From a virus, in the IMG/VR virus record IMGVR_UViG_3300037484_000374, positions 32,001-96,000 of that record: 64,000 bases of DNA. The stretch is one strand, 5' to 3'. Below the pieces are notes generated by a model that saw only the letters and a program-made list of their open reading frames with translations, searched no databases and had not been told where the DNA came from. Below are positions 4,497 to 49,260 of this stretch, one piece after another. Both the position numbers and the translations under genes were made by a program. Numbering within the stretch: the stretch's first letter is position 1; each line of letters opens with the position of its first letter.

Positions 4497-4659
4497 AAAA
4501 CGGGCTGTGCTTACATGTCAACCGAGCGGGGCATTTTGTGCATCGATGAATTTTTATTCTCTTCGGTTTATTACGATCTTTAATCTTTTTTATTATAGCT
4601 ATAACTACTAAAACAACAAATGAAACATATTTTATAGCTATTTTAGATATACTTTTCAT
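4486..4659 (-). CDS. Small membrane protein with Cys-rich tail (57 aa, below ORF-track cutoff)
   Basis: MKSISKIAIKYVSFVVLVVIAII...CTKCPARLTCKHSPFCEL; start overlaps the endonuclease stop. Confidence 0.55.
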   Translation of the reverse strand: MKSISKIAIKYVSFVVLVVIAIIKKIKDRNKPKRIKIHRCTKCPARLTCKHSPFCEL

Positions 4660-5888
4660 AGTATAAATTCCTTAATTTTTTCAAGACATTTTTCTTTGTT
4701 AAAATTCCACAAATTTTCATCTATTATTAAGAGATTAATATTATTTTCTTTACACTGTTGTTTTTTTATCTTGTCTCTTATTTTTCTTTTTGGTAATGAG
4801 TGCCAATAAACACCGTTGAATTCTATTGCTTTATTTAATTCTGGAAGCCATATATCCAGTTCAAGATTGAACCCTGTTTCTGGATTGACAATCTGAGTCC
4901 TATCATTGGATATAATTATATCATCATAAATGTTTTTGATAAATTCAAAAATTTCAATTTCAGCTTTTGATGATGTTGATTCATCATAGCATTTTGGACA
5001 TCGAATACCCTGTTTAAAACTATCCCACACCACTTTATACACATGACCTTTTGGGCATTTTACTTTTAATTTTGTATTTGAGTTTTTGTATTCTTTACTC
5101 AGTAATTTATATCCATCTTTCTCTATCTGTTCTTTGACAAATTCATGTGTAAGTTTCTTGTTTCCAGAACATTCCGAGCATCTTTGTCCATGATTAAAAC
5201 AATCATATACTACTTCATATTCATGATCCTTTGGACATTTTACTTTTAATTTATTTTTATTATTTTTATATGTCTTACTTAAAAGTTTATACCCTTCTTT
5301 TTCAATTTGTTCTTTGACAAATTCATGTGTAAGTTTCTTGTTTCCAGAACATTCCGAGCATCTATAACCTTGTTGGAAATCATTCCATTTTACCTTATAT
5401 TTATGTCCATTTGGACATATGGTTTTCAATTTAGTAAATGCGTTTTTATATTCTTTACTTAATAATTTATACCCTTCTTTTTCAATATATTCTTTTACAT
5501 ATTCATGTGTGAGTTTCTTCTTACCGGAACATTCAGGACATCTATTTCCCTGTTGAAAATGACCCCAGTTAACTTTATATTTATGTCCTTTAGAACACTT
5601 TACTTTCAATTTTGTTTGGGCATTAAAATATTCCTTACTTAATAATTTATACCCTTCTTTCTCGATCTGTTCCTTTACATACTCATATGTGAGTTTCTTC
5701 TTACCAGAACATTCAAGACATCTATTTCCCTGTTGAAAATTATTCCATGTTACACTCCATTCATGTCCATTTGAGCACCGAATTTTTAGTTTTGTATTAT
5801 TATTTTTATATTCCTTACTTAATAATTTATACCCTTCTTTTTCAATTTGATCTTTCACAGCCTTATATGTTAATTTTTTCAATCCCAT
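4656..5888 (-). CDS. Free-standing homing-type endonuclease: 5 zinc-ribbon repeats plus Vsr-like PD-(D/E)XK domain
   Basis: Five ~60-aa repeats (KKLT..VKEQIEKEGYKLLS..C..GH..RCxxC); LELDIWLPELNKAIEFNGVYWH nuclease core. Confidence 0.85.
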   Translation of the reverse strand: MGLKKLTYKAVKDQIEKEGYKLLSKEYKNNNTKLKIRCSNGHEWSVTWNNFQQGNRCLECSGKKKLTYEYVKEQIEKEGYKLLSKEYFNAQTKLKVKCSKGHKYKVNWGHFQQGNRCPECSGKKKLTHEYVKEYIEKEGYKLLSKEYKNAFTKLKTICPNGHKYKVKWNDFQQGYRCSECSGNKKLTHEFVKEQIEKEGYKLLSKTYKNNKNKLKVKCPKDHEYEVVYDCFNHGQRCSECSGNKKLTHEFVKEQIEKDGYKLLSKEYKNSNTKLKVKCPKGHVYKVVWDSFKQGIRCPKCYDESTSSKAEIEIFEFIKNIYDDIIISNDRTQIVNPETGFNLELDIWLPELNKAIEFNGVYWHSLPKRKIRDKIKKQQCKENNINLLIIDENLWNFNKEKCLEKIKEFIL

Positions 5889-7747
5889 TACTTTTCTTTT
5901 ATCTCTTCTATAATACCAACCAATTCTGGTCTTATGTTAGGGTTATTTAATAGTCTGTTCACAAACATCTCACCTTCGAGAATGGTATTCCTTCCACATG
6001 AAGTGATGGCCTCTGAAATATTCACATTGAAATAACGAGAATATGGTACGGCTGTCACACCGAAACTCGCGTTTATTATCAATTTCAATGAATACTGTAA
6101 AGCATGTTTTTGAATTGACAACAACACAAGATTTGCTTTTTTTTCGGGGTCTTTTTCTTGTTTTGCTTCTTCTTTATATGTGAACTTATTACCCTTTTCA
6201 ACCTTTCTCTTCAAAAATATATTCTTAACAACAGCGGCATAAACACCTGTTGGTTTATTCATGAAAATAGAACCACATGGTGCTATGGCTAGAAGACCAT
6301 GCTCTAATGCCTTGTTGAATTTACTAAGTTTATCACCTTCATAATATTCAAATCCAGTATTTTTAAGAATATGAAATGGGGGAAATTGTTTTTTACGTAC
6401 ATATTGTATAACTATATTGTAGAATGGCCGACCATCCTCGCCTGTTGTATGAACACCTGTCTCTCTTTTAAATTCCTGTAGGTGCTCCTTTGTAAACCCA
6501 ACAACCCTTCCAAAGTATGTCTCAATGCTCATATTCAGAGTTATTATTGCAGTGGGGTAACTAGAGGTAATATCCAAATCAATAACCCATTCATGGAGTC
6601 CCTTGTTAGGTTCCTTTACAAATGCCGCCGGGAAGTATTCTTGAGACCCCCCATTAAATTCAGGGGCACATAGGTTATTTCTCCTGTAGTAGGTTATCAA
6701 CAAACCCTCAACAAGTTGTGTCTGACTACAATAGTTTTTCATTGGGTTTTTACATAAAAGACAAAGTGTTTCTATGAGAAAAATATAAGCCAGCTTCTTT
6801 TCAAGTTCTTGTACAATTCTACTATCGTTTATATTATACTCAACGTATAAGTCATGATTTTCATTATATAAATTACGCAATGTGTCGTAATCACTATAGT
6901 CAAGTTTCGCACCAACCTTCTCAAGCCTTGCAACATAATCGAGTTTGTGATTTTCAAGGTTGTGCTGTGTAAACCATTTATATATACTCATAAAATCAAG
7001 AATGGTAACACCTGCAATATCTATATTCCAATTATCGATATTATCCATTTTCCACATTTTAACCAGACCGATAGGTGATAATTTCTTATATAGTTTGGTA
7101 TTTGTTCCGAACAATTTCTGTGTTCTTCTGATAATATATGGAAGATCAAAGCCCCCCATGGGATTGTTTTTAATATCAGCGCAATAATTCCAGCCTGTCA
7201 TAACGTCACATGGATTTTCTCTCTTCCAAGTAAAATACCTTTCGAGTAAGTCCTTTTCGTCATTACATTTTACATATGTAACATCATCAACGTTTATCGC
7301 TCCACATGGTGTATATTTTTTGCATCCAAATACCTGCACACCTTTTGAATGTGCTATTGATATTAATGTGATTGGCCAAGCTGTTTCGTTGGTATTTGGG
7401 AATTCACCTGTAGAAAAAACTTCAATATCTTCATAGTGAATTTCAAGTTTCGGTGGTTGAATATCTGAATCTTCTATTTCGTAATATCTCTCGGCAAAGA
7501 ATTGAATTACAGGGAGAACCTTGTTTTCGTAACAAGAATTGGTATTCTGAAAATCATTATATGATCTATAAGAATCAAATTCCTTTCTTACAACAGGAGC
7601 ACCATCAATTGTTTTGATAACACTCTTATTGGTTTTCAAATAAACAAAGGGAGCCCACACTACATTGTCATAGAAATTCTCCCCGTTTATCTGTTCCCAG
7701 ACATGAACAATTGAATTTTGGTTGTCATAATATATATTTTTAATCAT
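5888..7747 (-). CDS. gp43: Family B DNA polymerase, N-terminal subunit (gp43A-like: exonuclease, motifs A and B)
   Basis: DIE ExoI, TGWN..FDLPY ExoII, YNIND ExoIII, DLDITSSYP motif A, KLIINASFG motif B; lacks motif C. Confidence 0.93.
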   Translation of the reverse strand: MIKNIYYDNQNSIVHVWEQINGENFYDNVVWAPFVYLKTNKSVIKTIDGAPVVRKEFDSYRSYNDFQNTNSCYENKVLPVIQFFAERYYEIEDSDIQPPKLEIHYEDIEVFSTGEFPNTNETAWPITLISIAHSKGVQVFGCKKYTPCGAINVDDVTYVKCNDEKDLLERYFTWKRENPCDVMTGWNYCADIKNNPMGGFDLPYIIRRTQKLFGTNTKLYKKLSPIGLVKMWKMDNIDNWNIDIAGVTILDFMSIYKWFTQHNLENHKLDYVARLEKVGAKLDYSDYDTLRNLYNENHDLYVEYNINDSRIVQELEKKLAYIFLIETLCLLCKNPMKNYCSQTQLVEGLLITYYRRNNLCAPEFNGGSQEYFPAAFVKEPNKGLHEWVIDLDITSSYPTAIITLNMSIETYFGRVVGFTKEHLQEFKRETGVHTTGEDGRPFYNIVIQYVRKKQFPPFHILKNTGFEYYEGDKLSKFNKALEHGLLAIAPCGSIFMNKPTGVYAAVVKNIFLKRKVEKGNKFTYKEEAKQEKDPEKKANLVLLSIQKHALQYSLKLIINASFGVTAVPYSRYFNVNISEAITSCGRNTILEGEMFVNRLLNNPNIRPELVGIIEEIKEK

Positions 7748-7759
7748 AAAATGTTCTCT

Positions 7760-8059
7760 TTATGAGACAGGCCCATCACCACAATCGAATTCATAATCCT
7801 TACTGACTGTAAACTCACCAAGTATATAATGGGCATCTGTCTCTTTTATATCATACTTCTCATGGATTTGTTTGATTTCATGAGTTCTACCACCAATCTC
7901 ATCACAAACGTTATGGGATAGCTCTCTGTCTCTCTCATAAGCACATACAAGGGCTTGTATCGGGTGCATCCAGCCACTATATGTTAAAAACTCACCGGAC
8001 TCATGATGGACATATATTCTACTTGATGGCATCGGTACAAACTTTCTTGAATTTCTCAT
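7760..8059 (-). CDS. Hypothetical protein
   Basis: 99 aa, overlapping operon packing. Confidence 0.6.
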   Translation of the reverse strand: MRNSRKFVPMPSSRIYVHHESGEFLTYSGWMHPIQALVCAYERDRELSHNVCDEIGGRTHEIKQIHEKYDIKETDAHYILGEFTVSKDYEFDCGDGPVS

Positions 8060-8542: not shown

Positions 8543-8779
8543 AATTTCTCAATTTGTTATATATATGTATCTAAGTGCCGACCCTTTCCGTATGATATAC
8601 TCTTATTACTTTCAGTGACAGGTACAACTTTAATTCTCTTCTCATAAACAGGAATATCTTTTCGAGGTGTAAACTGTGGGTATGGTGTTATCATTTTTCC
8701 CAACCAACATCTTTCTTGCATTTATCACATTTCATAATGAACCCCCTTTTCACCTATAAAATTGTTTATCTTATGGTGT

Positions 8780-8807: not shown

Positions 8808-8812
8808 CATTT

Positions 8813-11154: not shown

Positions 11155-11381
11155 AATGATGTCACCTGCAATTCCTTTTCTCTGATTGTTAGGCGACAGT
11201 GTAAATAATTTATATAATAGGTAACATCTTCTCTACTTCTCTTTCCCCAATCATAGATATAGACATATCGCTCAACATATTGTTTGGCCAACTTTAACTG
11301 ATCAATGTTGGTACAAGAATTTATAACCTTATCACATCTGTCAACCATATCCATTGTTCTTCTCTGTGTTATCCCGCACAT
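11151..11381 (-). CDS. Hypothetical protein X (copy 1)
   Basis: 76 aa; duplicated at 12304..12567. Confidence 0.6.
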   Translation of the reverse strand: MCGITQRRTMDMVDRCDKVINSCTNIDQLKLAKQYVERYVYIYDWGKRSREDVTYYINYLHCRLTIREKELQVTSL

Positions 11382-11390
11382 ATCAGTTTT
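11158..11390. repeat. 233-bp exact direct repeat, copy 1
   Basis: Identical to 12344..12576. Confidence 0.95.
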
Positions 11391-12303
11391 ATATTGCCTT
11401 TTTGGACTTTAATTTAAACACAAAATTCATGAAGTTAATTTCTCTAATAACTCCCCTGCTATCGTTTATGTTCGCTTCCCCTAATTCAAGGATAGCAACC
11501 CAATCATTTTTAAAAACAGTCCCATCATTATTATCAGTGATTAGTTTATATATGTAAGTATATAATCCTGTGTAATTTATAACATTACTTCTAAGAATTC
11601 TCAGGACATTATCTGGATCACCCGACTTTATGGCCTTGACCACATCACCGAATACATCATTTGATGTTGTCCTAATCAATTTTTCTGACAGTTCACCGTT
11701 GATCACATTCTCTTTTAAAGTACCTACTGTGTCACGGATATCTGGATAGCATGTCTTTACGATTTGGGCAATTGATTTTGGGTTGAATTTTATACCCTCG
11801 CTTGTTAAAATCTTTACACAGTGCTTGTAGATTACATCCCCTGGTGGGTTATTGATTTCGATTACTCGGCATCTTGATTTCAACTCAGGCATTATTTTAT
11901 CACTGTAGTTACATGCAAAGATAAAACGAGTTGTTTCGATTACCTTTTCCATGAGGTCACGTAACATGGCCTGTGCCGACTGTGATAAATAATCAGCCTC
12001 GTTGATATACATAACTTTGAGTTCACTATCAAAACCCATCGCTTCTGCAAATGGTTTGATTTTGGAACGAACAATATCTATACCAGTTTCATCTGATCCA
12101 TTTATTCGGCAAAAGGTATTCTGCGAGGAATTTTTGTAGATATCAACAAATGTTCCTTTACCAACCCCAGGAGGCCCAACGAGTATGGTATTTGGTTGTT
12201 CTGCCAAAACCTTCTCTAACTGTGTCCTGACATCATCATTAAGAACCATATCATCTAAGCTGGTCGGATTATGTTTAACTTCCCATACATCTTTGTTTAT
12301 CAT
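11389..12303 (-). CDS. gp44: Clamp loader large subunit (gp44/RFC-like AAA+)
   Basis: WEVKHNP, GPPGVGKG, INGSDETGID, NEAD, KSRC. Confidence 0.93.
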   Translation of the reverse strand: MINKDVWEVKHNPTSLDDMVLNDDVRTQLEKVLAEQPNTILVGPPGVGKGTFVDIYKNSSQNTFCRINGSDETGIDIVRSKIKPFAEAMGFDSELKVMYINEADYLSQSAQAMLRDLMEKVIETTRFIFACNYSDKIMPELKSRCRVIEINNPPGDVIYKHCVKILTSEGIKFNPKSIAQIVKTCYPDIRDTVGTLKENVINGELSEKLIRTTSNDVFGDVVKAIKSGDPDNVLRILRSNVINYTGLYTYIYKLITDNNDGTVFKNDWVAILELGEANINDSRGVIREINFMNFVFKLKSKKAI

Positions 12304-12567
12304 TTATTCCCCTCTCTTGTTTTTGTTTATTTTTTTCTTTAGGGATGTCACCTGCAATTCCTTTTCTCTGATTGTTAGGCGACAGTGTAAATAATTTATA
12401 TAATAGGTAACATCTTCTCTACTTCTCTTTCCCCAATCATAGATATAGACATATCGCTCAACATATTGTTTGGCCAACTTTAACTGATCAATGTTGGTAC
12501 AAGAATTTATAACCTTATCACATCTGTCAACCATATCCATTGTTCTTCTCTGTGTTATCCCGCACAT
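12304..12567 (-). CDS. Hypothetical protein X (copy 2), carrying the HU C-terminal tail
   Basis: Identical to copy 1, then SLKKKINKNKRGE. Confidence 0.55.
   Translation of the reverse strand: MCGITQRRTMDMVDRCDKVINSCTNIDQLKLAKQYVERYVYIYDWGKRSREDVTYYINYLHCRLTIREKELQVTSLKKKINKNKRGE
12307..12348. repeat. 42-bp direct repeat (partner 12576..12617)
   Basis: TTCCCCTCTCTTGTTTTTGTTTATTTTTTTCTTTAGGGATGT flanks the second 233-bp copy. Confidence 0.9.
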
Positions 12568-12576
12568 ATCAGTTTT
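12344..12576. repeat. 233-bp exact direct repeat, copy 2
   Basis: Identical to 11158..11390. Confidence 0.95.
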
Positions 12577-14235: not shown

Positions 14236-14327
14236 TTAGTTATTATAAATTTAGTATTTAAGAATTCTATTAAGTAGTTTATTAGTTATTATAAATTTAG
14301 TATTTAAGAATTCTATTAAGTAGTTTA
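14236..14327. repeat. Tandem repeat, 2 x 46 bp, in an AT-rich intergenic region
   Basis: TTAGTTATTATAAATTTAGTATTTAAGAATTCTATTAAGTAGTTTA twice. Confidence 0.9.
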
Positions 14328-14535: not shown

Positions 14536-16776
14536 GTGGCTATCAAAAACTTCGTATTAGACACCAACGTAATAATTTCAAGTAAGGACGCTATAAAGAC
14601 AATTATGAACGGAAACGATGGCGGTGAAGCAAATAATATATTCATACCATATACGGTTTTGGAGGAATTAGACTGTCTTAAAATGAATACAAAACTCAGA
14701 CCAATGGTGTATGAGGCATTTGAACAATTAAAAGAGTATAAAGATCATATCAAATTTATAGGTAATAGAGAAAAGAAAACACCGGATAATAAAATACTGG
14801 ATGAAATTCGTGATGCCGAACTTGAACTTAATTTAGGCGATGAGAATACAATATTCTTAACAAATGATATCATGCTACAGATAAAAGCAGAGGCCGAGGG
14901 TATCAATCCACAGGAATTCAAAGATTCAAAACCATATGAATCCGAGAGTCAACAATGTGATGGCTTTGTAAACGTTGATGAGGGTGAAAAGTTTTTTCCG
15001 AACTGTTTCTACTGGCAAGATGGAAGGTTGATGTTTAATGGAGTAAAAGAAGTACACACTGTACCTGATCATGCACCATGGAAGATAACACCTAAAAGTT
15101 ATTACCAAAATGCCGCTATTGATCTGATGAAAAATGATGAAATTAACCTCGTTACGATTCAGTCAAGGGCCGGTCTTGGTAAAGCACAACCATTAGATGC
15201 CAAAATATTAACACCTAATGGATGGAAAAAAATGGGTGATTTACAAGTTGGTGATATGGTTATAAATTCACAAGGAGAACCGACAAAGGTTTTAACAATA
15301 CACCCACAAGGAGAAAAGGAAATATATAGAGTATTATTTAATGATAATAGTAGTACAGAATGTTGTGATGATCATTTATGGTTTGTTAGAAAAGAATATC
15401 ATAAATACCAAGTAAAAAAATTAAGAGATATAAAAGATAATCTATATAATGAAAAACGAAAAAGATTGAATTGGTTTATACCGACAGTATCACCAATAAA
15501 ATTCCAAAAAAAACCATTACCAATAAAACCATACTTGATGGGGGTTTTATTGGGTGATGGTGGAATGACAACAAGTAATGTAAGTATAACAACAGTAGAT
15601 AAAGAAATAATAGATCATTGTAGTGATATATTACCAGATGGGTTATATATCAAACATATATGTGAACACCAATATCATATTAACATGCTTGATAGAAAAA
15701 TTGGCGGTAAAAAAGATATTTTTACAAATATTATTAACAAAATACTATATGAATTAAAATTATTTAAACTGAAATCACATGAAAAATTTATACCAGTTGA
15801 TTATTTATATTCATCTATAGATGATAGGGTACAAATACTCAGAGGATTGATGGATACAGATAGTGGTATTCTTAAAGATAACAGAGTTGAATATCATACT
15901 TCTTCATCAAAATTAAGAGATGGTGTTATTTTTTTGGTGAGATCACTTGGAGGTAGGGCATATTTTAATAAAAAAACACCATATTATATCTATAATGGGA
16001 TGAAAAAACAAGGTAAGGAAAGCTATACTGTTAGAATAACATTACCATCTGATATTAACCCATTTTTCTTAAAAAGAAAGGTTAATATATATAATGGTTA
16101 TAAGAAATATCCACCATCAAGAGGAATAAAAGAAATAAAATATATTGGTAATAAAGAAGCACAATGTATCACGGTTGATTCAGATGACCATATGTATATC
16201 ACAGATGATTTTATCGTCACCCATAATTCATATATATCACTGGCCACGGCATTGGAACAGACATTCGAGAAAAAGAAATATGAGAAGATATACATCTTTA
16301 AAAATATAGTAAATATTGGACAGGGGTTGGGTTTCCTTCCAGGAAGTCTTGAGGATAAGATAGAACCATACACCAGATATATGGTATCATTAATTCAAAA
16401 ACTCAGTGGTGTCAGAAAATTGAGCGAGAGAATTATGGATGCTAATGGGGTTATTAATCCACATTACATCGAGATTCTTCCTCTGACATTTATCAGGGGT
16501 ATGAACATTGAAGATGCATTTGTAATCATCGATGAGACACAGAACATTTCTCGACAAGAAATGAGAGCACTTCTGACAAGAATGTGCGGTAATGTTAAGG
16601 TTTGTTGCATCGGGGATACGTCACAGGTCGATGCTATGTTTCTCAATGAAATGAATAACGCTCTTAACTGGACTGTTAAATTATGTAAAGGCCAAGAACA
16701 CTATGGTCATATAACCTTGAAAGGTAATAAATCAAGAGGCCCGATCACAGACATGGTTCTTAAAGTAGGATTATAA
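14536..16776 (+). CDS. phoH: PIN-PhoH (PhoH2/YlaK-like) ATPase with intein
   Basis: FVLDTNV..EELD PIN domain, AGLGK|S Walker A, LGFLPG, FIRG, IIDETQN, GDTSQVD. Confidence 0.92.
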   Translation: MAIKNFVLDTNVIISSKDAIKTIMNGNDGGEANNIFIPYTVLEELDCLKMNTKLRPMVYEAFEQLKEYKDHIKFIGNREKKTPDNKILDEIRDAELELNLGDENTIFLTNDIMLQIKAEAEGINPQEFKDSKPYESESQQCDGFVNVDEGEKFFPNCFYWQDGRLMFNGVKEVHTVPDHAPWKITPKSYYQNAAIDLMKNDEINLVTIQSRAGLGKAQPLDAKILTPNGWKKMGDLQVGDMVINSQGEPTKVLTIHPQGEKEIYRVLFNDNSSTECCDDHLWFVRKEYHKYQVKKLRDIKDNLYNEKRKRLNWFIPTVSPIKFQKKPLPIKPYLMGVLLGDGGMTTSNVSITTVDKEIIDHCSDILPDGLYIKHICEHQYHINMLDRKIGGKKDIFTNIINKILYELKLFKLKSHEKFIPVDYLYSSIDDRVQILRGLMDTDSGILKDNRVEYHTSSSKLRDGVIFLVRSLGGRAYFNKKTPYYIYNGMKKQGKESYTVRITLPSDINPFFLKRKVNIYNGYKKYPPSRGIKEIKYIGNKEAQCITVDSDDHMYITDDFIVTHNSYISLATALEQTFEKKKYEKIYIFKNIVNIGQGLGFLPGSLEDKIEPYTRYMVSLIQKLSGVRKLSERIMDANGVINPHYIEILPLTFIRGMNIEDAFVIIDETQNISRQEMRALLTRMCGNVKVCCIGDTSQVDAMFLNEMNNALNWTVKLCKGQEHYGHITLKGNKSRGPITDMVLKVGL
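15184..16227 (+). mobile_element. Class 3 intein with LAGLIDADG endonuclease (348 aa)
   Basis: Starts AQPLDAKILTP, ends VTHN|S; HLW, AQC and THN signature; MGVLLGDG and LRGLMDTDS motifs. Confidence 0.9.
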
Positions 16777-16782
16777 ATGCCA
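16765..16782. repeat. 18-bp direct repeat flanking the endonuclease gene (partner 17824..17841)
   Basis: GTAGGATTATAAATGCCA at both junctions. Confidence 0.9.
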
Positions 16783-17835
16783 AAAAAACTAACATGTAAT
16801 CATGTGAAAAGAATGATCGAAAATTGTGATGGTTATATACTATTATCATCGGAATATATTAATAATCATTCAAAATTAAAAATTAGATGTCCTGATGGTC
16901 ATGAATATAAGGCAACTTATAATGATTTTCAAGCCGGTAATAGATGTCCTTTATGTGCTAAAAATAGAAAATTTACATATAATTTTATAAAGAAACATAT
17001 AACAAAAGAAGGATATATACTTTTAAGCGAAGATTATAAAGATACACATTCAAAATTAAAAATTAAATGCCCAAAACAACATATTTTTGAAATGGGTTTT
17101 AATTCATTTAAACATGGACAAAGATGTTCTGTTTGTTATGGAACACCAAAACATACATATGAATTTATCAAAGAGCATATAGAATATTCTGGATGTAAAC
17201 TTTTAAGTAAAGAATATAAAGGCAATAAAAAACATTTAAGAATTCAATGTAAGAATAATCACATATTTAAAATGAGATGGGACTGTTTTCAAAGAGGTCA
17301 GAGATGTAAAGAATGTAGTATTGATAATACAAGAATGAAACATGAGTATATAAAGGAACAATTTGAAAAGGAAGGTTATTATTTACTTAGCTGTAAGTAT
17401 AAGAATAATCATTCAAAATTAAAAGTTCAATGTCCTATTGGACATAAGTATATGACAGCATATCAAAGATGGTATAACGGTAATAGATGCCCTATTTGTT
17501 ATGCAGAAACAACATCATCAATACCAGAAAAAGAAGTATTTGAAATAGTTAAACAAATATATGATGGGGGTTTGATTGCTAACGATAGAACACAAATAAT
17601 TAATCCAAGTACAGGATGTGGTCTTGAGTTGGATGTATGGCTTCCAGAGTTAAGAAAAGCAATTGAGTTTAATGGTGTTTATTGGCACTCATCATACTAT
17701 ACTAAAAGAAAAGACAAAATAAAGAAACAACAATGTGAAGAAAAAGGTATTGATTTAATGATAATATACGATTGTGAATGGTTATATGGCAAAGAAAAAT
17801 GTCTAAATAAAATAAATAAATTCGTAGGATTATAA
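16777..17835 (+). CDS. Zinc-ribbon-repeat (4x) PD-(D/E)XK homing-type endonuclease
   Basis: Paralog of 4656..5888; LELDVWLPELRKAIEFNGVYWH. Confidence 0.85.
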   Translation: MPKKLTCNHVKRMIENCDGYILLSSEYINNHSKLKIRCPDGHEYKATYNDFQAGNRCPLCAKNRKFTYNFIKKHITKEGYILLSEDYKDTHSKLKIKCPKQHIFEMGFNSFKHGQRCSVCYGTPKHTYEFIKEHIEYSGCKLLSKEYKGNKKHLRIQCKNNHIFKMRWDCFQRGQRCKECSIDNTRMKHEYIKEQFEKEGYYLLSCKYKNNHSKLKVQCPIGHKYMTAYQRWYNGNRCPICYAETTSSIPEKEVFEIVKQIYDGGLIANDRTQIINPSTGCGLELDVWLPELRKAIEFNGVYWHSSYYTKRKDKIKKQQCEEKGIDLMIIYDCEWLYGKEKCLNKINKFVGL

Positions 17836-19392
17836 ATGCCAGAACTTGAATTTGAAAATGAAAGGAGAGTAAAAAAACTTGGTGTTCAGTATGAATATAC
17901 ACCTGATCAGATAAAAGAATTGATCAGGTGTAAGAAGTCTTGTTTGTATTTTGTGAGTAATTACGTCAAAATATATAATGAAGATCAAGGCATTATTTTA
18001 TTTAACCCCTATGACTATCAAAAGGAGTTACTTGAGAATTATGAAAAGTACCGTTTTAACATCGGACTACTCTGTAGACAGTCAGGTAAGACCACTGTAG
18101 TTGCGGCATATGCGTTATGGTTTGCTATTTTTAATGATAACAAAAATATAGGTATCGTTTCAAATAAAGAAGATAGCGCAAAATCATTCTTGGCACGTCT
18201 TAAAGAGATGTATGAATTGTTGCCAGGATGGCTAAAACCTGGGGTTATAGCATGGGCCGAGACATCTGTAAAATTTGAAAATAAAACAAAAATAAGAATC
18301 AGCGCCACAAGTAAAGATTCTTTCCGTGGCGAGCCAATGTCACTCGTTATATGTGATGAGTTAGCTTTCGTTGACCCGCAATGGAAAGCGGATGAATTCT
18401 GGGCGAGTAACTATCCTACCATTTCAGCTTCAAAAACTGCGAAGATTATTATCATTAGTACACCAAATGGTATGTATAATAAATTCCATGAACTATACTC
18501 AAAAGCCGAGAAAAAACAAAATACATTTGTTCCTTACTTCGCTGATTGGACAAGGGTTCCTGGAAGAGATGAAAAATGGGCCGCTGAGCAGCTTGCCAAT
18601 CTTGGAGAGATCAAATTTGCACAAGAATTCTCCTGTAAGTTCGTTGGTAGTAGTTCCACAGTTCTTGACCCAGCCACAATTGAGCGCATTTTAAATCAAA
18701 GAATATATGATCCAAAATTATTAGACCTTAATAATAAATTCAGAGTATACGAAAAACCAAAAGATGGTTCCATATATGTCATTGGGGTGGACGTTGCAAA
18801 GGGTACTGGTGAGCATTACAGTACGATGCAAGTATTGAAGATAGTGAGTATCGACCCTCTTAAAGTTCAACAGGTTGCTGTATATGAGGACAACATGACA
18901 GACGTGTACCGTTTCTCTGAGATAGTAAATAGGACATGTTATTACTATAATAAAGCCTATTTAATGATTGAGAATAATGGTGAGGGTGCTCCGGTTGTAA
19001 ATCGAATATGGTGGGAGTATGAAAATGAATATCTGGTTTGTACTGGTACAAAAGCAAAAGACCTCGGTATAAGAGCAACAAAAGCAACAAAACCAATTGC
19101 TGTTCTATTCATGAAAAAAGTAATCGAGGGGAAATCCCTTAAAGTTATAGATTACAAAACGATCAAACAGTTATCATCATTTATTGACAAAGGGAATAAT
19201 AAATTCACAGGTGGTGGACAGGATGATGATTTAGTATCTGCGTTGTATTGGGCACTATATATTTTCTGTATGGATGTCCTCGATGAGAAGTTTGAATTTA
19301 GAAGAGAGGAAGCAGAGGATGAGGGATGGGGGATTCTAAGTGATGTGGATACGGAAGAAGAAGAAGTTGATTGGTCTTGGATGAGAGAATAA
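17836..19392 (+). CDS. gp17: Terminase large subunit (gp17-like)
   Basis: PYDYQ, RQSGKTT, ICDELAF, ISTPNG, FAQEF, GVDVA, DDLV. Confidence 0.95.
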   Translation: MPELEFENERRVKKLGVQYEYTPDQIKELIRCKKSCLYFVSNYVKIYNEDQGIILFNPYDYQKELLENYEKYRFNIGLLCRQSGKTTVVAAYALWFAIFNDNKNIGIVSNKEDSAKSFLARLKEMYELLPGWLKPGVIAWAETSVKFENKTKIRISATSKDSFRGEPMSLVICDELAFVDPQWKADEFWASNYPTISASKTAKIIIISTPNGMYNKFHELYSKAEKKQNTFVPYFADWTRVPGRDEKWAAEQLANLGEIKFAQEFSCKFVGSSSTVLDPATIERILNQRIYDPKLLDLNNKFRVYEKPKDGSIYVIGVDVAKGTGEHYSTMQVLKIVSIDPLKVQQVAVYEDNMTDVYRFSEIVNRTCYYYNKAYLMIENNGEGAPVVNRIWWEYENEYLVCTGTKAKDLGIRATKATKPIAVLFMKKVIEGKSLKVIDYKTIKQLSSFIDKGNNKFTGGGQDDDLVSALYWALYIFCMDVLDEKFEFRREEAEDEGWGILSDVDTEEEEVDWSWMRE

Positions 19393-19402
19393 TAATATTT
19401 TA

Positions 19403-19410
19403 TATAAATA
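19403..19410 (+). promoter_or_regulatory. T4-type late promoter
   Basis: TATAAATA. Confidence 0.7.
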
Positions 19411-19442
19411 CTATTGAATAATTTTATTTAAAAGGATAATAG

Positions 19443-19731
19443 ATGAGGTTTCATAAATTCATAACAGAGATGGTCGCACCTAGACAACGGGATATTGCTA
19501 AGGTCTATTAACCCAGAAACAGGTCGAAACCTCGAACTGGATGTATGGCTTCCAGAGTTAAGAAAAGCAATTGAGTTTAACGAAAGATATTGACACTCAT
19601 CTATATATGCCAAACAACATGATAAAATTAAAAACAACAATGTAAGGAAACAGGTAATATTATTAGTGGTTAAGGGTAATTATGTCAAAGAAAAATGTCT
19701 AAATAAAATAAAAGAATTTATAAAGGGATAA
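19443..19731 (+). pseudogene. Chimeric remnant: MRFHKFITE leader joined to a decayed endonuclease C-terminus
   Basis: INPETGRNLELDVWLPELRKAIEFN followed by stop and frameshifts; DNA blocks identical to the 3' end of 16777..17835. Confidence 0.75.
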
Positions 19732-39277: not shown

Positions 39278-41053
39278 ATGGGAAACACATATCATATAAT
39301 ATATGATGGTCTAAAAGATTATGTTAAAAAGACTGTCCCAGTTCATCAACAAACTGGAAAGTTCAGCGAGTTTCTGGAAATATATTTTGACAGGGTACAG
39401 TCAGAAATTTATAACCTTCAAAAAAATATATGGACTTTATTAGACCCGATGGAGATTGACCCTGAGTATCTTGGTTACCTCTCAAAATTCTATGATATGG
39501 GTGATATCACTGATATTAGCACAGAGACATTAAGAAACAGAGAGTTCGTAAGAGATTTACCATATCTTCTAAAAAGAAAAGGAACAAACAGTTCCATATA
39601 CGATATATGGAAAGTAATAACACAAACAAATAACTATATAAACATATATGAAAAATGGCATAGTTCATCAATTACCGGAACGGTTCCAACAAGTGCGGTG
39701 ACAGAATACAATTATGTTAACCGACCAGAATATGACTACGATGTGACCCTCAGAACGGACGGTGCTGGTGAAGATTGGTATAAGGATGGATCATACCCAT
39801 CTTCTTTTGAAAGCACAACAGATGTCCAATCAACGGGTTACAGGATAGAACTTGATATGTGTAAAGAACCCATAACAAACACAGCAATTCTACCAAAAGA
39901 TATATGGGACAGACTTTATGAGTATTGGGAATTTATAAAACCAATAAACAGAGTTTCAGAGTATAGTATTGTTTTGGCCCCTATATGTGACTTCACCGGT
40001 GGTGATGTAAGTTTATACGATGTACCAAGCAAAACAGCATACTGTATATCAAGACAGAACATATATAATCTATGGGAAAATGGTGCTCATATAGAGATCG
40101 TTAATATACCATCAACAGAATGGACAATAACCCACGATCTAAGTAGAGCGAATGTTGTAACAGCGGCATATAACTTTGATTTTGAATTAATATTCCCAGA
40201 TAAGATTGAATACATCGATAGCGATACAGTTATTGCAATATGGCCAGAACCGACAACAGGATATTTCTTCACAAGGATAGTTGATTATTATCAGGAAAGA
40301 AGAACACCGACCACGGATATCTGGAAATTCAAACATTTACAGGCTCACAATGCTGGTGGGGAGTTGATCATACAGTTTAGATTACCTAACGAGATTCCAG
40401 AAGAAAAGGTAATGATAAACGATCTACAGCTTATAGATATTACACCGGACGATGAAACAGCGTTGGTTGATACAAACTATTATGTTGATACACCGATACC
40501 AGTTGAGACTGATGCACTTATAAAAGCATCGGACGCTATTGTGTTCCAAACAACACCATCAGATACATGGGAAGTCCTTCATAACCTACACTACAAGGGT
40601 GTTATAGCCAGTTGTTATGATAATGATGGAAGACAAATGGTTCCAGATAAGATAGAATTGATATCTGAGGTTGTTATGAGAATCCATTGGCCTGAACCAG
40701 TAACAGGTTATACAAGCGTTGTAGCGATAGGTAACATTGACTTCTATGACGTACTACTTGAAATACTCGAAGATGAGCAGTTATCCCCTATATGGCGCAT
40801 CAATAGTGTTGAAAACGGACTGATTGCACAGCTTTCGGAGTATGACGATGAGGGTGTAATTCCAAGAGATACTATTTATGAAGATGATAATTACTATTAT
40901 CTGTCATTTCCGCTACCAAAAGAAAACGAATATACCATCAGAGAACTTGGTATTCTTAATCAGAACCAAGAGTTATTGTTCTACACAAAATGCAGTGAAT
41001 TATATAAACCAGAAAATATTGACATGACTATTCATTATCGTATAAAAAAATAA
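39278..41053 (+). CDS. Baseplate wedge (gp7/gpI-like) with repeated WxxxHxL domains
   Basis: LKRKGT, IKP, WTITHDL/WEVLHNL repeats, IRELGILN. Confidence 0.65.
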   Translation: MGNTYHIIYDGLKDYVKKTVPVHQQTGKFSEFLEIYFDRVQSEIYNLQKNIWTLLDPMEIDPEYLGYLSKFYDMGDITDISTETLRNREFVRDLPYLLKRKGTNSSIYDIWKVITQTNNYINIYEKWHSSSITGTVPTSAVTEYNYVNRPEYDYDVTLRTDGAGEDWYKDGSYPSSFESTTDVQSTGYRIELDMCKEPITNTAILPKDIWDRLYEYWEFIKPINRVSEYSIVLAPICDFTGGDVSLYDVPSKTAYCISRQNIYNLWENGAHIEIVNIPSTEWTITHDLSRANVVTAAYNFDFELIFPDKIEYIDSDTVIAIWPEPTTGYFFTRIVDYYQERRTPTTDIWKFKHLQAHNAGGELIIQFRLPNEIPEEKVMINDLQLIDITPDDETALVDTNYYVDTPIPVETDALIKASDAIVFQTTPSDTWEVLHNLHYKGVIASCYDNDGRQMVPDKIELISEVVMRIHWPEPVTGYTSVVAIGNIDFYDVLLEILEDEQLSPIWRINSVENGLIAQLSEYDDEGVIPRDTIYEDDNYYYLSFPLPKENEYTIRELGILNQNQELLFYTKCSELYKPENIDMTIHYRIKK

Positions 41054-41066
41054 TATTATTTTTTTA

Positions 41067-41074
41067 TATAAATA
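41067..41074 (+). promoter_or_regulatory. T4-type late promoter
   Basis: TATAAATA. Confidence 0.7.
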
Positions 41075-41082
41075 CTATTGAT

Positions 41083-41471
41083 ATGCCCAAGAAACTATCA
41101 TATGATTATGTAAAGGAGCAGATTGAAAAAGAAGGATTTGAATTAGTAAGTAAAGAATATATTAATTCCAAGATTAAACTAAAAGTTGTGTGTCCAGAGA
41201 GGTATGAATATAAAGTAACATGGAATAGTTTCAATAGTGGTAGTAGATGTCCTGAATGTGATTATAATAAAAAGACTTCCAAAGTAGAAATTGAAATTTT
41301 TGAATATATTAAAACATTATATATTGGCACTCATTTAGTAGTGCTAAAAGAAGAGACACTATCAAAAACAACAATGTAAAGAAAAGGGTATTGGTTTAAT
41401 GGTAATTGATGAAGAAATTTATAATTTTAACAAAGAAAATGTTTAAATAAAATAGTGGAGTTTATAGAATA
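41083..41471 (+). pseudogene. Decayed zinc-ribbon endonuclease (one repeat, catalytic core deleted)
   Basis: One repeat plus SKVEIEIFEYIK; YWHS resumes in another frame; LELD..IEFNG segment absent. Confidence 0.8.
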
Positions 41472-45384: not shown

Positions 45385-45387
45385 CTT

Positions 45388-45732: not shown

Positions 45733-47914
45733 AATAGTAAAAATTGAATGGAGGAATTTTCTCTCGTATGGTAACCAGTGGTCATCGTATGAGTTTAAAA
45801 TCGGTGTTACTCTGATCAAGGGACATGATAACGACAAGAACAGATCAAACGGTTCCGGTAAATCATCGTTCCTAGAATCACTTGTTTTTGGTTTATTCGG
45901 TACAACCATAAAGCCCATTAAAAAATCTGGTATCGTTAACTGGACTAATAAGAAGGGTTGTGAGGTAATGGTCTATTTCAAAAGAGGTGTGAACGAATAC
46001 AAGATTCACAGGGGCTTAAAGCCAAATGTATTTGATTTCTATATCAATGGGGTAGTTCAACCAAAATTAGCAAAAGTAATCGACTATCAAATAATGATCG
46101 AAGAAGACTATCTTGGTATGGACTTCAAGACATTTAAAAATCTTGTTCATTCAAATCCCAATAACTCAATATCATTGTTCGACACACCGAAAGGTGAGAA
46201 GAGAGAATTTCTTGAAAAACTGTTTGACTTGGGAATGTTTTCTGAAATGAACAAACTCATAAATGATAAATTGCAAAAGATACAATCTGGAATTATTGAA
46301 GATACCAATAATATTGAGAGCAATAAAAGAGTTATCAATGTTTTAAACTCTGATATAGATGGGGTTGATAGACAGCTTGCTGATATTTTGATACGTGATG
46401 ACAGCGAACTTGATAAATTGGAAGAGGTTGCCAAGGAGATAATTACCCGTGGCGTGTATGATAAAGATGTAGATACAGAAAGGAAACAGCTTTTAGAGGA
46501 TAGTGCAGAATTAGGAAAAGCAAGAGCATTGTTTACTGAGGTTGACAACTACATCACAACACAGGAAAACGATTTAAAAGTAGCTAATCGTGATATTGAA
46601 AAAATAAACATTACCGACACCAAAACTTCCTTGGAAGTAAAGGAAACAAAATATAATACTTTAATCGCCGCCGATCTCCCAACAAGAAAGAAAAAGAACT
46701 TAGAGGAAGAGATTACCCTAAAGGGTGAGATAAAAAAAATAACAAATTATATTGTTGAAATTAAAGAAGTCATCGCTGGTAGCAGGGGTGAATTAAAAGC
46801 GTTCCCTGATCCTGAGAATATTAAAGGGAAACATAAATGCCCAACATGCTACAGTGACGTTGATTATGATCATATCAAGGTCGAAATTGAAAAACTTAAA
46901 AAACCTATTGAAGAGAATATCAACACCAATACCTTAAAAGAAAAAGAGTTAACAACTTTAAAAGCTGGTTTCGAAACACAGATCACAGATATTGAAAGTA
47001 AGATCAAAACAATAGATGGATATATCAGAGAATCTGAACAGTTAGCGATTGATATTGAGAGGATAAAGAATGAACTTTCTACAAAAGAAGCAGAACTTGA
47101 AGCCCTTGAAAAACAAAAAGTGATATACACCCAATCACTTGCAGAGAAATATTTAACACGAACACCATTGACAGATGAGTTAGCAAAAGCTAATGTCAAG
47201 TATGATGAACAACAACAATATATAAGGGATATAGAAAAAGATAAAACATTATATGAGTTTAATCGTGATCAATTGGCTTCTATAAAAGAGTCAAATGAAA
47301 AGGCTATAAAGCAAAAGGAACAAATTCAGGCAAACTACACAAAGAAGGTTACCGAGAGAGATGATCTTCAAGCAAATAACAATAAACTCATAGGTGGATT
47401 GAATAAAAATAATACCGCTAAAGATTATCTCTCTTATCTAAAAAATAGCTTGAAGGATGAGAATGTTAAGCAATATGCTATCAGTTCGATGATACCATTT
47501 ATCAACAGACAGACAAATCATTACTTGTCAGAGACAGGTCACTCGTTCTATGTGAATATCGATGGATGGCTTGATGCCCAGATAATGGGGCCAGGAGTTC
47601 ATGACTGTGAATATGGGAATCTATCTGGCGGTGAGTCAAAATCAATCGATCTGGCGATGAAATTCGCATGTAATGACGTTGCAAACCTACAATCTGTTGC
47701 GGCCTGTGATATCTTAATACTTGATGAGATACTTGATAGTAGTATTGACACACAGGGACTTGAACAACTTATTGATATAGTCCAAGTAAAACAGAAAGAT
47801 AATAATTTAAAAGTGTTTATAATATCACATAGAGATGAAGTTAATGATATCGTTTTCGACAACGAGATTTTGATCGAAAAAAAGAATGGTTTCAGCAATA
47901 TAAAGGAGTTATAA
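45719..47914 (+). CDS. gp46: Recombination ATPase (gp46/Rad50/SbcC)
   Basis: NFLSYG, NGSGKS, zinc-hook CPTC, LSGGE, LILDE, IISH. Confidence 0.94.
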   Translation: MERIEIVKIEWRNFLSYGNQWSSYEFKIGVTLIKGHDNDKNRSNGSGKSSFLESLVFGLFGTTIKPIKKSGIVNWTNKKGCEVMVYFKRGVNEYKIHRGLKPNVFDFYINGVVQPKLAKVIDYQIMIEEDYLGMDFKTFKNLVHSNPNNSISLFDTPKGEKREFLEKLFDLGMFSEMNKLINDKLQKIQSGIIEDTNNIESNKRVINVLNSDIDGVDRQLADILIRDDSELDKLEEVAKEIITRGVYDKDVDTERKQLLEDSAELGKARALFTEVDNYITTQENDLKVANRDIEKINITDTKTSLEVKETKYNTLIAADLPTRKKKNLEEEITLKGEIKKITNYIVEIKEVIAGSRGELKAFPDPENIKGKHKCPTCYSDVDYDHIKVEIEKLKKPIEENINTNTLKEKELTTLKAGFETQITDIESKIKTIDGYIRESEQLAIDIERIKNELSTKEAELEALEKQKVIYTQSLAEKYLTRTPLTDELAKANVKYDEQQQYIRDIEKDKTLYEFNRDQLASIKESNEKAIKQKEQIQANYTKKVTERDDLQANNNKLIGGLNKNNTAKDYLSYLKNSLKDENVKQYAISSMIPFINRQTNHYLSETGHSFYVNIDGWLDAQIMGPGVHDCEYGNLSGGESKSIDLAMKFACNDVANLQSVAACDILILDEILDSSIDTQGLEQLIDIVQVKQKDNNLKVFIISHRDEVNDIVFDNEILIEKKNGFSNIKEL

Positions 47915-48129
47915 TGAGAGTATTTGGAAACTACGATAAAGCAAAGGAAAGTTTAGATGCAAAGAAAAAATATTGGATAAATTCACGATGTCCTTTTAAT
48001 GGTAATTTATGTGGATCAAGTTGTGCATTGTTCCATTTGAGTAAAGATGAAAACGGTGAACCTCATTTTGTAATATTGGGATGCAAGGGAAAAGAGTTAC
48101 GAATTTATATTGACGAAACAATAGAATAA
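47914..48129 (+). CDS. Small Cys-containing protein
   Basis: CPF..CGSSCALF. Confidence 0.55.
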   Translation: MRVFGNYDKAKESLDAKKKYWINSRCPFNGNLCGSSCALFHLSKDENGEPHFVILGCKGKELRIYIDETIE

Positions 48130-48161
48130 AAGTAACAACAGTGAGGACATCATCTTTTCAC

Positions 48162-48190
48162 TTGACAAAATATTGATTTTGTGTTATAAT
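48162..48190 (+). promoter_or_regulatory. Consensus sigma70 promoter for the endonuclease, short leader
   Basis: TTGACA-N17-TATAAT, 8 nt before ATG. Confidence 0.75.
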
Positions 48191-48198
48191 TAAGTATT

Positions 48199-49260
48199 AT
48201 GAGTAAGAAACTAACATATGAATTTGTAAAGGAGAAAATTGAAAAGGAAGGGTATAAACTTTTAAGTAAGACATATAAAAATAATAAAAATAAATTAAAA
48301 GTAAAATGTCCAAAGGATCATGAGTCCAAAATAAGATTGAGTAATTTCCATTATGGTCAAAGGTGTCAAGAATGTCCTTCTTGTGCGATAGACAAAAGAA
48401 GACATTCATATGAGCATGTAAAGGAATTAATTGAAAAAGAAGGGTATACTCTTTTAAGTGAAACATATAAAAATAACAGAAAAAAATTAAAAGTAAGGTG
48501 TCCAGAAAACCATGTATATGAAACAACATATTATAGTTTTAAAAGCGGAAGGAGATGCCCAGAATGTGCTGGTAATAAAAAACTAACATATGAACATATC
48601 AAAGAACAGATAGAAAATGAGGGTTATGCCCTTTTAAGTAAAGAATATAAAAACGCCAATAATAAATTGAAAGTAAAGTGTTCTAAAGGACATAAATATA
48701 AAGTTAACTGGGGTCATTTTCAACAAGGTGTTAGATGTCTTGAATGTTCAGGTAGTAAGAAACTAACATATGAATTTGTAAAGGAGAAAATTGAAAAAGA
48801 AGGGTATAAACTTTTAAGTGATAGTTATAAAGATTCCAGAACTAAACTAAAAGTAAAATGCCCAGAAGGACACGAATACTCGGTTAAATGGAATAATTTT
48901 CAAATTGGTCAAAGGTGTCCAGAATGTTATGCTGAATCATCAATATCAAAACCTGAAAAGGAAGTTTTGGAATATGTTAAAACTCTTTACGGTGAAGTAA
49001 TTTCAAATGATAGGACTCAGATTGTCAATCCAGAAACAGGTTGTAATCTTGAACTGGATTTATGGATTCCAGAGTTGAATAAGGCAATTGAGTTTAATGG
49101 TGTTTATTGGCACTCATCATACTATACTAAAAGAAAAGACAAAATAAAGAAACAACAATGTGAAGAAAAAGGTATTGATTTAATGATAATTGATGAAGAA
49201 ATTTGGAACCTTAACAAAGAAAAATGTTTAGACAAAATTAGAGATTTTATATTAGTTTAA
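48199..49260 (+). CDS. Zinc-ribbon-repeat (4x) PD-(D/E)XK homing-type endonuclease
   Basis: Paralog of 4656 and 16777; LELDLWIPELNKAIEFNGVYWH. Confidence 0.85.
   Translation: MSKKLTYEFVKEKIEKEGYKLLSKTYKNNKNKLKVKCPKDHESKIRLSNFHYGQRCQECPSCAIDKRRHSYEHVKELIEKEGYTLLSETYKNNRKKLKVRCPENHVYETTYYSFKSGRRCPECAGNKKLTYEHIKEQIENEGYALLSKEYKNANNKLKVKCSKGHKYKVNWGHFQQGVRCLECSGSKKLTYEFVKEKIEKEGYKLLSDSYKDSRTKLKVKCPEGHEYSVKWNNFQIGQRCPECYAESSISKPEKEVLEYVKTLYGEVISNDRTQIVNPETGCNLELDLWIPELNKAIEFNGVYWHSSYYTKRKDKIKKQQCEEKGIDLMIIDEEIWNLNKEKCLDKIRDFILV

Follow-up and report, generated by a model that had tools for sequence, protein, structure and literature searches.

[quoted passage not shown] The prototype of the EDxHD family, I-Bth0305I of Bacillus phage 0305phi8-36 (PDB 3R3P), is a proven homing endonuclease, a homodimer with a footprint of approximately 60 bp and a tolerant specificity, and the paper describing it assigns phage Hef enzymes to the same family (PMC3239194). 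Hef (phage U5), as described in secondary sources, and Hef-like genes are free-standing between conserved genes of T4-related phages and present in several to many copies per genome. Examples are hef-1 to hef-9 of Campylobacter phage CP81 and the F-Lim enzymes of Dickeya phage LIMEstone1.

Zinc modules of the CapR type, often repeated, are also found in the T5orf172 (GIY-YIG superfamily) homing endonucleases of Vibrio phage ICP1, which include CapR, DUF723 and DUF4379 domains, and in the PLE repressor CapR. For the ICP1 nucleases, recombination between repeats and the swapping of domains among paralogs have been reported, and modularity was proposed as a route to new specificities (2023, PMC10448857). 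Members of the CapR family bind specific DNA in experiments; one CapR domain suffices to bind a specific site, and CapR needs its four cysteines to bind DNA (PMC8096241).

Here, we analysed a 64 000 nt stretch (the window) of a 170 951 bp (171 kb) T4-like phage genome. In the whole genome, 11 loci of a zinc-array/nuclease family were found, six of them intact genes with 6, 5, 4, 4, 3 and 3 repeats and five of them decayed remnants. Pairwise identities among the paralogs are 60–80%. The first-pass annotation had reported three intact genes in the window, with five, four and four repeats and a Vsr-like nuclease, and two remnants; all five were recovered. The intact genes, here named A (4656..5888, minus strand), B (16777..17835, plus strand) and C (48199..49260, plus strand), are ORFs of 410, 352 and 353 aa that encode five, four and four units of approximately 60 aa and then a nuclease domain of approximately 105 aa. 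In gene A, an intact Hef-like HEG, the five CapR-type zinc modules span aa 4–305 and the EDxHD/Vsr-like domain approximately aa 306–410, and in gene C the nuclease domain is aa 245–353 (48931–49257). The remnant at 19483..19722 (plus strand), just after the terminase gene, is reduced to the C-terminal end portion of the nuclease domain, 52–58% identical to aa 263–350 of gene B (tblastn). It contains no intact ORF and shares a 43 nt exact block with gene B. The remnant at 41083..41466 (plus strand) includes a 98 aa ORF with one module, in which a zinc-ligand His has become Tyr, while other reading frames hold pieces of the nuclease domain. The first 80 nt of this remnant and the start of an intact paralog at genome position 130523, outside the window, are identical.

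The modules are of the CapR/DUF4379 type, approximately 60 aa long, with a helix, a beta-hairpin with a C-x3-H knuckle and then C-x2-C; conserved K/R residues could hold phosphates. Pfam CapR was matched at 46–97 bits (cut-off 24.2) in three to five stretches (96.8 bits in five stretches for gene A), together with DUF4379 and Zn_ribbon_Brz. The family also matches PHROG 559 (E = 3e-103 for gene A), 681 and 3339, which are annotated as endonucleases. Gene A matched PDB entry 3r3p, I-Bth0305I, and a profile of 41 nuclease-domain sequences matched it with E = 8e-7. E285, D287, E298, N300, H305 and D314 are invariant and every catalytic residue is kept: D287, N300, H305 and D314 correspond to the I-Bth0305I active-site residues D196, N208, H213 and D222 (PMC3239194), the last three equated by profile alignment and D287 placed by position. 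An AF2 model of the gene C product (pLDDT 86), compared using Foldseek, gave a TM score of 0.76 (probability 1.0) against 3r3p and 0.53 against Vsr (1vsr). By sequence and predicted fold, the C-terminal domain is an EDxHD/Vsr-like nuclease as in I-Bth0305I and Hef. It was found in 227 phage records, many of them annotated 'Hef-like homing endonuclease'.

Comparison with the described systems revealed both likeness and divergence. The architecture of the phage intron HEGs (PMC12350094) is identical, and the AR9/PBS1 examples are 37% identical to gene A. However, those genes are intron-encoded, whereas here no intron RNA was detected, the copies are free-standing, and 11 paralogs, with three to six repeats in the intact copies, exchange sequence within one genome. 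CP81 hef-9 combines five tandem zinc repeats with the same nuclease core, and its alignment with gene A takes in both parts (33% identity, E = 9e-46), but its repeats are approximately 51 aa long, it has an extra C-terminal domain and the identity is low. I-Bth0305I shares the catalytic fold and active-site residues, but is intron-encoded and carries two NUMOD-type helix-turn-helix motifs in place of zinc modules. The ICP1 nucleases and CapR share the module type, but differ in their nuclease (T5orf172), in their ligands (CxxC…CxC rather than C-x3-H…C-x2-C) and in usually having one or two repeats rather than three to six. As the architecture and the idea of modular recombining arrays have already been published (PMC12350094, PMC10448857), this is a known homing-nuclease family and not a new kind of system.

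The copies are wedged between conserved genes of replication, packaging and recombination, namely those for a split DNA polymerase, PhoH, the large terminase (TerL) and a gp46-like SMC protein, and such sites are typical of homing elements. Gene A comes directly after the part of the split DNA polymerase gene that encodes the N-terminal half, with stop and start overlapping as TAATG, and all intact copies other than gene C directly adjoin or overlap the preceding gene's stop codon. UvsX and gp46/47 homologues are encoded beside gene C. Gene B sits exactly between the PhoH stop and the TerL start (flanks identified by PhoH and Terminase_6N/6C). An 18 nt exact direct repeat, a length reached in none of 300 shuffles, has its left copy at 16765..16782 and its right copy, made up of the last codons of gene B, its stop and the first TerL codons, at 17824..17841 (both plus strand). 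The copies are 1059 nt apart, the length of gene B, and are in the same register to its start codon and its end. Because this repeat brackets gene B in register, we conclude that a precise cassette, gene B, lies between PhoH and TerL. Relatives of TerL at 57% identity have no counterpart of gene B beside TerL, and among the relatives searched none that is close and lacks a copy was found.

Exact blocks of up to 119 nt are shared between paralogs across the genome. The median nucleotide identity between units is 62%. The four blocks listed in the first-pass annotation (77, 62, 35 and 107 nt) were each confirmed with zero mismatches. The 77 nt block at 48247..48323 in unit 1 of gene C is the reverse complement of 5221–5297 in unit 4 of gene A; it covers module aa 15–40, including the first variable patch without the second, and is largely common also to unit 2 of the six-repeat paralog. 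The 62 nt block at 48664..48725 in unit 3 of gene C is the reverse complement of 5551–5612 in unit 2 of gene A and covers module aa 30–50, the second patch without the first. Thus, unit order is permuted between paralogs, as had been claimed. In the nuclease domain, a 35 nt block (49006..49040; reverse complement of 4873–4907 in gene A) falls inside a 119 nt block shared by gene C and the six-repeat paralog (genome positions 16891–17009), and 107 nt at 49084..49190 are identical to 17659–17765 in gene B, a run that is 86 nt long in the sister strain L001. Gene C is the most mosaic copy: blocks of at least 30 nt identical to other paralogs make up 44% of the array and 72% of the nuclease DNA. 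In 10 000 column shuffles, none of the eight longest in-register runs (42–77 nt) was equalled, and over the codons of the 77 nt block, where an average pair of units has approximately 9 synonymous and 17 non-synonymous differences, there are none. DNA blocks have moved between paralogs and the mosaicism is real. It is also seen between strains: a sister contig that is 99.74% identical differs from gene B at seven positions within 39 nt (17599..17637, plus strand), where the sister-strain gene B matches the paralog G9 exactly over 50 nt, while gene B of this genome has no match of at least 25 nt to G9. The sister strain thus has in gene B a conversion tract of 39–50 nt that came from another paralog.

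We conclude that these are most probably free-standing Hef-like (EDxHD/Vsr-fold PD-(D/E)XK) HEGs that have multiplied to 11 loci, and that the shared blocks reflect untargeted ectopic gene conversion. The three to six zinc modules would form a long sequence-reading DNA-binding arm, like beads on a string, and the C-terminal domain of approximately 105 aa would cut nearby. During co-infection, a phage genome without the gene would be cut and then repaired from a genome carrying it, and the repair would copy the gene and its flanks. The identical blocks would be ectopic conversion tracts between the 60–80% identical paralogs, made by the phage's own recombination machinery. Such conversion would homogenize the nuclease domains, with chimeric recognition modules as a by-product.

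Some or all of the intact copies could instead have been co-opted by the phage for excluding or degrading rival phage or satellite DNA, for cutting host DNA or for regulating genes through DNA binding. Six intact paralogs of one family are retained in one genome, two synonymous sites are all that separates gene A from its counterparts in three other assemblies, and gene C has its own predicted early-type promoter, a sigma-70-type consensus (TTGACA, 17 nt, TATAAT; 48162..48190, plus strand) read from the sequence 8 nt upstream of its start. The PLE repressor CapR and Odn, a nuclease of ICP1, are precedents, as domestication of proteins with CapR domains and defence nucleases derived from HEGs have both been described (PMC8096241, PMC10448857). 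However, five copies are visibly decaying, as selfish elements usually do, both the placement between conserved genes and the junction duplication resemble insertions, and no copy shows a link to a target in a host, a satellite or a rival phage. Co-option appears unlikely.

The first-pass annotation had proposed that these may be natural ZFN/TALEN-like nucleases with a base-recognition code in their repeats and a specificity that recombination among the copies reshuffles. On this view, a few code residues in each repeat would read a fixed subsite, and recombination, with the remnants as a cassette store, would serve to retarget the enzymes. The design logic is indeed that of engineered ZFNs and TALENs, tandem DNA-reading modules joined to a low-specificity nuclease that probably needs dimerization, and both the modular zinc array tethered to a Vsr-fold nuclease and the movement of blocks stand. 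The residue strings it quoted for the two variable patches of gene A were also correct. Among 534 natural repeats from 120 homologues, which have three to nine repeats each, scaffold and variable positions are clearly distinct, and the hypervariable positions, at which K, H, N, R, S, Q, T and E are frequent, alternate on both strands of the hairpin (32/34 and 40/42/44). These features speak for such a reading, as do tracts that bring a variable patch into another paralog, the permuted unit order, the blocks that remnants share with intact genes and the site-specific binding of a single CapR domain (PMC8096241). However, the five hypervariable positions form 490 distinct combinations among the 534 repeats, and therefore there is no small RVD-like (TALE-like) vocabulary. 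Tract ends fall anywhere within modules, producing hybrid modules rather than exchanging whole readers, and tracts cover 40% of nuclease-domain DNA versus 18.5% of array DNA. At the patch columns, pN/pS is approximately 1 and synonymous sites approach saturation, so that positive selection is not demonstrated, and no experimental structure of a module with DNA was found. ZFNs and TALENs have unrelated folds and a FokI rather than Vsr-like nuclease, and no per-module subsite or code is known here. Programmable readers are quite improbable. Given the sub-modular breaks, the greater coverage of the nuclease domain and the lack of a small residue vocabulary, the exchange is not aimed at recognition, and neither a base-recognition code nor reshuffling of specificity as its purpose is supported. 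Sub-modular ends, nuclease-rich tracts and the participation of remnants are what a T4-like phage would show if gene conversion simply followed homology and had no target.

Chimeric assembly across paralogs was considered, as the genome is from a metagenome and the exact blocks (35–119 nt) are at least as long as common assembly k-mers, but it is largely refuted and hardly credible: the gene A protein was found on at least six contigs from other samples and gene A with all its blocks on contigs of at least three, the exact gene C protein is on a separate 91 kb ENA contig from another assembly in the same gene context, L001 contains gene B with a different, biologically sensible conversion tract, and every mosaic would take two switches that cancel out, given that each gene is unique and collinear in both its flanks. 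With mosaic genes reproduced in independent metagenome assemblies, this family is a good example from nature of homing-endonuclease paralogs that undergo gene conversion with one another.

The three intact genes reported by the first-pass annotation were found at 4656–5888 on the minus strand (gene A; 410 aa), 16777–17835 on the plus strand (gene B; 352 aa) and 48199–49260 on the plus strand (gene C; 353 aa), and contain five, four and four repeats, respectively. Each open reading frame encodes units of approximately 60 aa followed by a C-terminal part of approximately 105 aa. Two remnants, also reported previously, are present at 19483–19722 and 41083–41466. The window represents bases 32001–96000 of a single 170,951 bp contig with a G+C content of 34%, and when the whole genome was searched using tblastn, 11 Hef-like loci were returned, six intact and five remnants. 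The intact copies have 6, 5, 4, 4, 3 and 3 repeats and encode proteins of 473, 410, 352, 353, approximately 301 and 289 aa, while the remnants retain either one repeat and scraps of the nuclease domain or the C-terminus of the nuclease alone. The copy at genome position 135573 has undergone a recent frameshift, and the last catalytic Asp has been lost.

The repeats of genes A to C matched the Pfam families PF21817 (CapR), with scores of 96.8, 46.3 and 80.7 bits (cut-off 24.2), and PF14311 (DUF4379), with scores of 53.4, 35.0 and 49.0 bits (cut-off 24.5), and Zn_ribbon_Brz was also matched. All 25 units of the six intact copies have the predicted zinc ligands C35, H39, C54 and C57, and these residues are nearly invariant across a set of 534 repeats. 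They form two pairs that flank a beta-hairpin, with C-x3-H as the first pair in place of the CxxC found in CapR. In an AlphaFold2 model of gene C (pLDDT 86), each unit is predicted as a helix followed by a two-stranded hairpin with a C-x3-H knuckle and a short helix, and the linkers between units are flexible. In the Vibrio satellite PLE, CapR represses the capsid operon and binds a specific promoter fragment, for which its four cysteines are required; among CapR/DUF4379-type modules, sequence-specific DNA binding has been demonstrated only for this protein (PMC8096241). When the fold of a single repeat was searched, trypanosome mitoribosomal proteins were the best match (Z 4.5), and every Foldseek match had an E value of 0.7 or above. 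As no clear solved relative was recovered, no DNA-binding mode can be transferred to the module. The repeats are carried by 650 GenBank phage records, and 1325 metagenomic proteins of 225–718 aa were matched, the best 120 of which have 3–9 repeats.

The C-terminal domain matched I-Bth0305I (PDB 3r3p) with an E value of 0.045 when a single sequence was used and 8e-7 with a 41-sequence profile. Residues ~250–353 of the AlphaFold2 model matched the same structure in Foldseek (TM-score for the target 0.76, rmsd 3.2 over 103 columns, probability 1.0), followed by Vsr (1vsr; 0.53), and a Vsr-type PD-(D/E)XK fold is therefore predicted. The residues E285, D287, E298, N300, H305 and D314 (gene C numbering) occur without exception in the 41 homologues, and each of the six intact paralogs has them. 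N300, H305 and D314 align with the active-site residues N208, H213 and D222 of I-Bth0305I, and D287 was matched to active-site residue D196 by position, not by alignment (PMC3239194). The phage 'Hef' endonucleases have been added explicitly to the EDxHD family (PMC3239194), and many of the 227 GenBank phage records that contain the nuclease domain are annotated 'Hef-like homing endonuclease'. The top GenBank match to the nuclease domain was a 465 aa 'Hef-like' protein of Tenacibaculum phage PTm1 (AP019524.1, 221790–223187). Here, a Mom-family domain comes after the Vsr-like core, and there is no zinc array in front of it. This represents another architecture of the same nuclease.

Matches to PHROG 559 span the full length of the protein, and hef-9 of Campylobacter phage CP81 aligns with gene A over five repeats and the nuclease core. 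[quoted passage not shown] Repeated CapR/DUF723/DUF4379 arrays are also found in the T5orf172 endonucleases of ICP1, where inter-repeat recombination and domain swaps between paralogs have been reported and modularity was suggested to speed target diversification (PMC10448857). Judged by sequence and modelled structure, the genes belong to the Hef-like/EDxHD homing-endonuclease family with CapR-type zinc arrays, and are thus of a known kind. As CapR modules are commonly combined with an EDxHD/Vsr nuclease and this design has been described before, no new category is opened.

The window has the gene content of a T4-like phage, and encodes a split family-B DNA polymerase, PhoH, a T4-type large terminase and an SMC protein similar to gp46. 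A gp47-like (Metallophos) gene is located upstream of the SMC gene, and RecA/UvsX is encoded downstream of gene C. When 20 kb was used to query GenBank with megablast, no phage relative was matched. The polymerase (2659–7747) is encoded by two genes separated by 2.4 kb, the break falling between motifs B and C, and neither an intein nor an intron signal is present at the split. The gap holds gene A and two small ORFs, and the arrangement resembles the gp43A/43B of some Aeromonas T4-like phages (PMC2988022). A perfect 233 nt direct repeat (11158–11390 and 12344–12576) lies either side of a clamp-loader-like gene (11389–12303, minus strand), duplicating a 76 aa ORF on both sides of it, and has the appearance of a segmental duplication of recent date or of a cassette junction. 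The PhoH gene (14536–16776) encodes an N-terminal PIN domain and includes an in-frame insert matching LAGLIDADG_3, which is probably an intein. Together, this insert and the 11 Hef-like loci show that the genome bears a heavy load of mobile elements. Upstream of PhoH, at 14236–14327, there are two tandem copies of a 46 nt unit. The sister-strain contig L001 (99.7% identical) apparently has one extra copy, to judge by how far its two alignment blocks are offset from each other, and this would be a copy-number polymorphism between strains.

Gene A follows the N-terminal polymerase half, overlapping it at TAATG, and gene B is located between the stop codon of PhoH and the start codon of TerL, with a remnant directly after TerL. 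Gene C is flanked by the gp46-like gene and a metallopeptidase/UvsX block, and a promoter of the consensus form TTGACA-17-TATAAT is predicted for it. While the previously described endonucleases of the same architecture are intron-borne (PMC12350094), an intron-encoded origin was rejected here as no group I or group II intron RNA was detected in the window using Rfam, and the genes are therefore free-standing. An exact 18 nt direct repeat brackets gene B, with its copies in identical register and 1059 nt apart, the length of the gene, and collapse of this repeat would give back a coupled PhoH-TerL junction. Flanking direct repeats exceeded those in shuffled sequences only at gene B (18 nt) and gene A (13 nt, inside the gene ends). 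In relatives with a 57% identical TerL, there is no Hef-like gene beside TerL. The placement of the genes, the 18 nt repeat and the absence from these relatives fit insertion as selfish cassettes, and the five decayed copies fit the usual cycle of invasion followed by decay. No close relatives lacking the copies were found when viral contigs were scanned with TerL, gp46 and the polymerase half, when the exact pattern of gene C was sought, or in a metagenome scan; all matches were either sister contigs that are nearly identical and have the genes, or relatives with at most 65% protein identity. Upstream of both remnants in the window (19388–19417 and 41052–41081) there is a nearly identical AT-rich sequence that contains TATAAATA followed by CTATTGA. 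The TATAAATA portion is a putative T4 late-promoter-like motif, and was not found within 120 nt upstream of the intact copies.

Four blocks of DNA shared by the paralogs (77, 62, 35 and 107 nt) had been listed in the first-pass annotation, and all four are exact, with zero mismatches. The median nucleotide identity between pairs of units is 62%, and the eight longest in-register runs (42–77 nt) were not reached in any of 10,000 column shuffles. Over the codons of the 77 nt block, an average pair of units would show approximately 9 synonymous and 17 non-synonymous differences. These identities are far beyond chance. Exact blocks of 30–119 nt connect almost every pair of loci, including the remnants, and the units most similar to one another frequently belong to different genes and occupy different places in the arrays. 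One such group comprises unit 4 of gene A, unit 1 of gene C and the second unit of the 6-repeat copy outside the window, and another comprises unit 2 of gene A and unit 3 of gene C. The ends of the shared tracts fall anywhere within the module (aa 15–40, 30–50, 1–21, 53–71 and so on), and are unconnected with the borders of modules or of the two variable residue clusters, patches 1 and 2, in each module. Hence, a tract may bring in one variable patch without the other and generate a hybrid module. Unit 4 of gene A, unit 1 of gene C and the second unit of the 6-repeat copy are natural chimeras of this sort, with patch 1 in common but different versions of patch 2. Tracts of at least 30 nt cover 40% of the nuclease-domain DNA but only 18.5% of the array DNA. 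This pattern is one of untargeted, homology-driven gene conversion, as expected in a phage that replicates by recombination.

The first-pass annotation had suggested that the genes may encode natural modular nucleases with a base-recognition code in the repeats, the specificity being reshuffled by recombination among copies. The modular nuclease and the exchange of blocks are real, but neither a code nor purposeful reshuffling was supported. The residue strings quoted for the variable patches are correct, and the repeats share with the programmable TALE and zinc-finger arrays a constant scaffold with a few hypervariable positions, exposed on the surface, in each repeat. Across the 534 repeats, the conserved scaffold comprises K1, K2, K9, G16, Y17, L19, L20, Y24, K30, L31, C35 and H39 in the first half, then F48, G51, R53, C54, C57 and K62, and in the entropy profile positions 10/11, 28, 32/34, 40/42/44, 46/47, 50/52 and 56/58 are hypervariable. 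The hypervariable positions alternate along the hairpin strands, and side chains capable of hydrogen bonding are abundant. However, the small vocabulary typical of the TALE RVDs is absent: the 534 repeats show 490 different combinations at positions 40/42/44/46/47, and even the most frequent one was seen only four times. Among 25 units, pN/pS is approximately 1 in the patch columns and 0–0.2 in the scaffold, with synonymous sites near saturation (pS 0.61), and the patch value is compatible with relaxed and diversifying selection alike. We regard it as improbable that the modules are separable, roughly additive readers of DNA and that the 11 loci serve as a pool of cassettes yielding nucleases with new targets. 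Under such a scheme, specificity may reside on one face of the hairpin (positions 28, 32/34, 40/42/44, 46/47 and 52), and gene conversion would perhaps be set off by breaks made by the nucleases themselves. If true, it would provide a natural, evolvable counterpart of zinc-finger nucleases made by modular assembly. A recognition-directed device, either a DGR or cassette-based antigenic variation, was rejected because the tracts are denser in the nuclease DNA and their ends are not tied to module or patch borders, and neither a reverse transcriptase nor a template repeat was observed in the vicinity of the genes.

Gene conversion between the paralogs was also detected between strains. L001, from IMG/VR, is 99.74% identical to this genome over 11 kb and has gene B, and 7 of the 29 differences lie within 39 nt of the gene B nuclease domain (17599–17637). 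The L001 version of this tract is identical over 50 nt to another paralog, G9, whereas gene B of the present genome has no match to G9 of at least 25 nt. Thus, the tract at 17599–17637 is a paralog-templated conversion that is segregating between strains. A further difference in gene B of L001, at 16910, is a single non-synonymous change (K45R) in patch 2 of module 1, and represents a single event. Gene A was found with all of its blocks in contigs from JGI 3300037424, 3300037483 and IMG/VR 3300037692, with two synonymous differences, and protein C is encoded exactly, in the same gene context, by a 91 kb contig of ENA assembly ERZ27256875. As the mosaics recur in independent assemblies and the G9-templated tract segregates between strains, a chimeric assembly, for which a check had been proposed, is very unlikely.

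With six intact and five decaying copies and dozens of exact conversion tracts in one phage genome, the family constitutes a clean natural dataset, and the sister strain caught with a fresh paralog-templated tract adds to its value. The multiple copies, the tracts and the sister-strain tract together make this a good system in which to study how homing endonucleases gain new targets and whether DNA is read by this zinc module in modular fashion. Were reading found to be modular, the units would be compact natural modules (~60 aa) from which designer nucleases could be built. The family is of interest as a natural example in which gene conversion among homing-endonuclease paralogs is recorded with unusual clarity.
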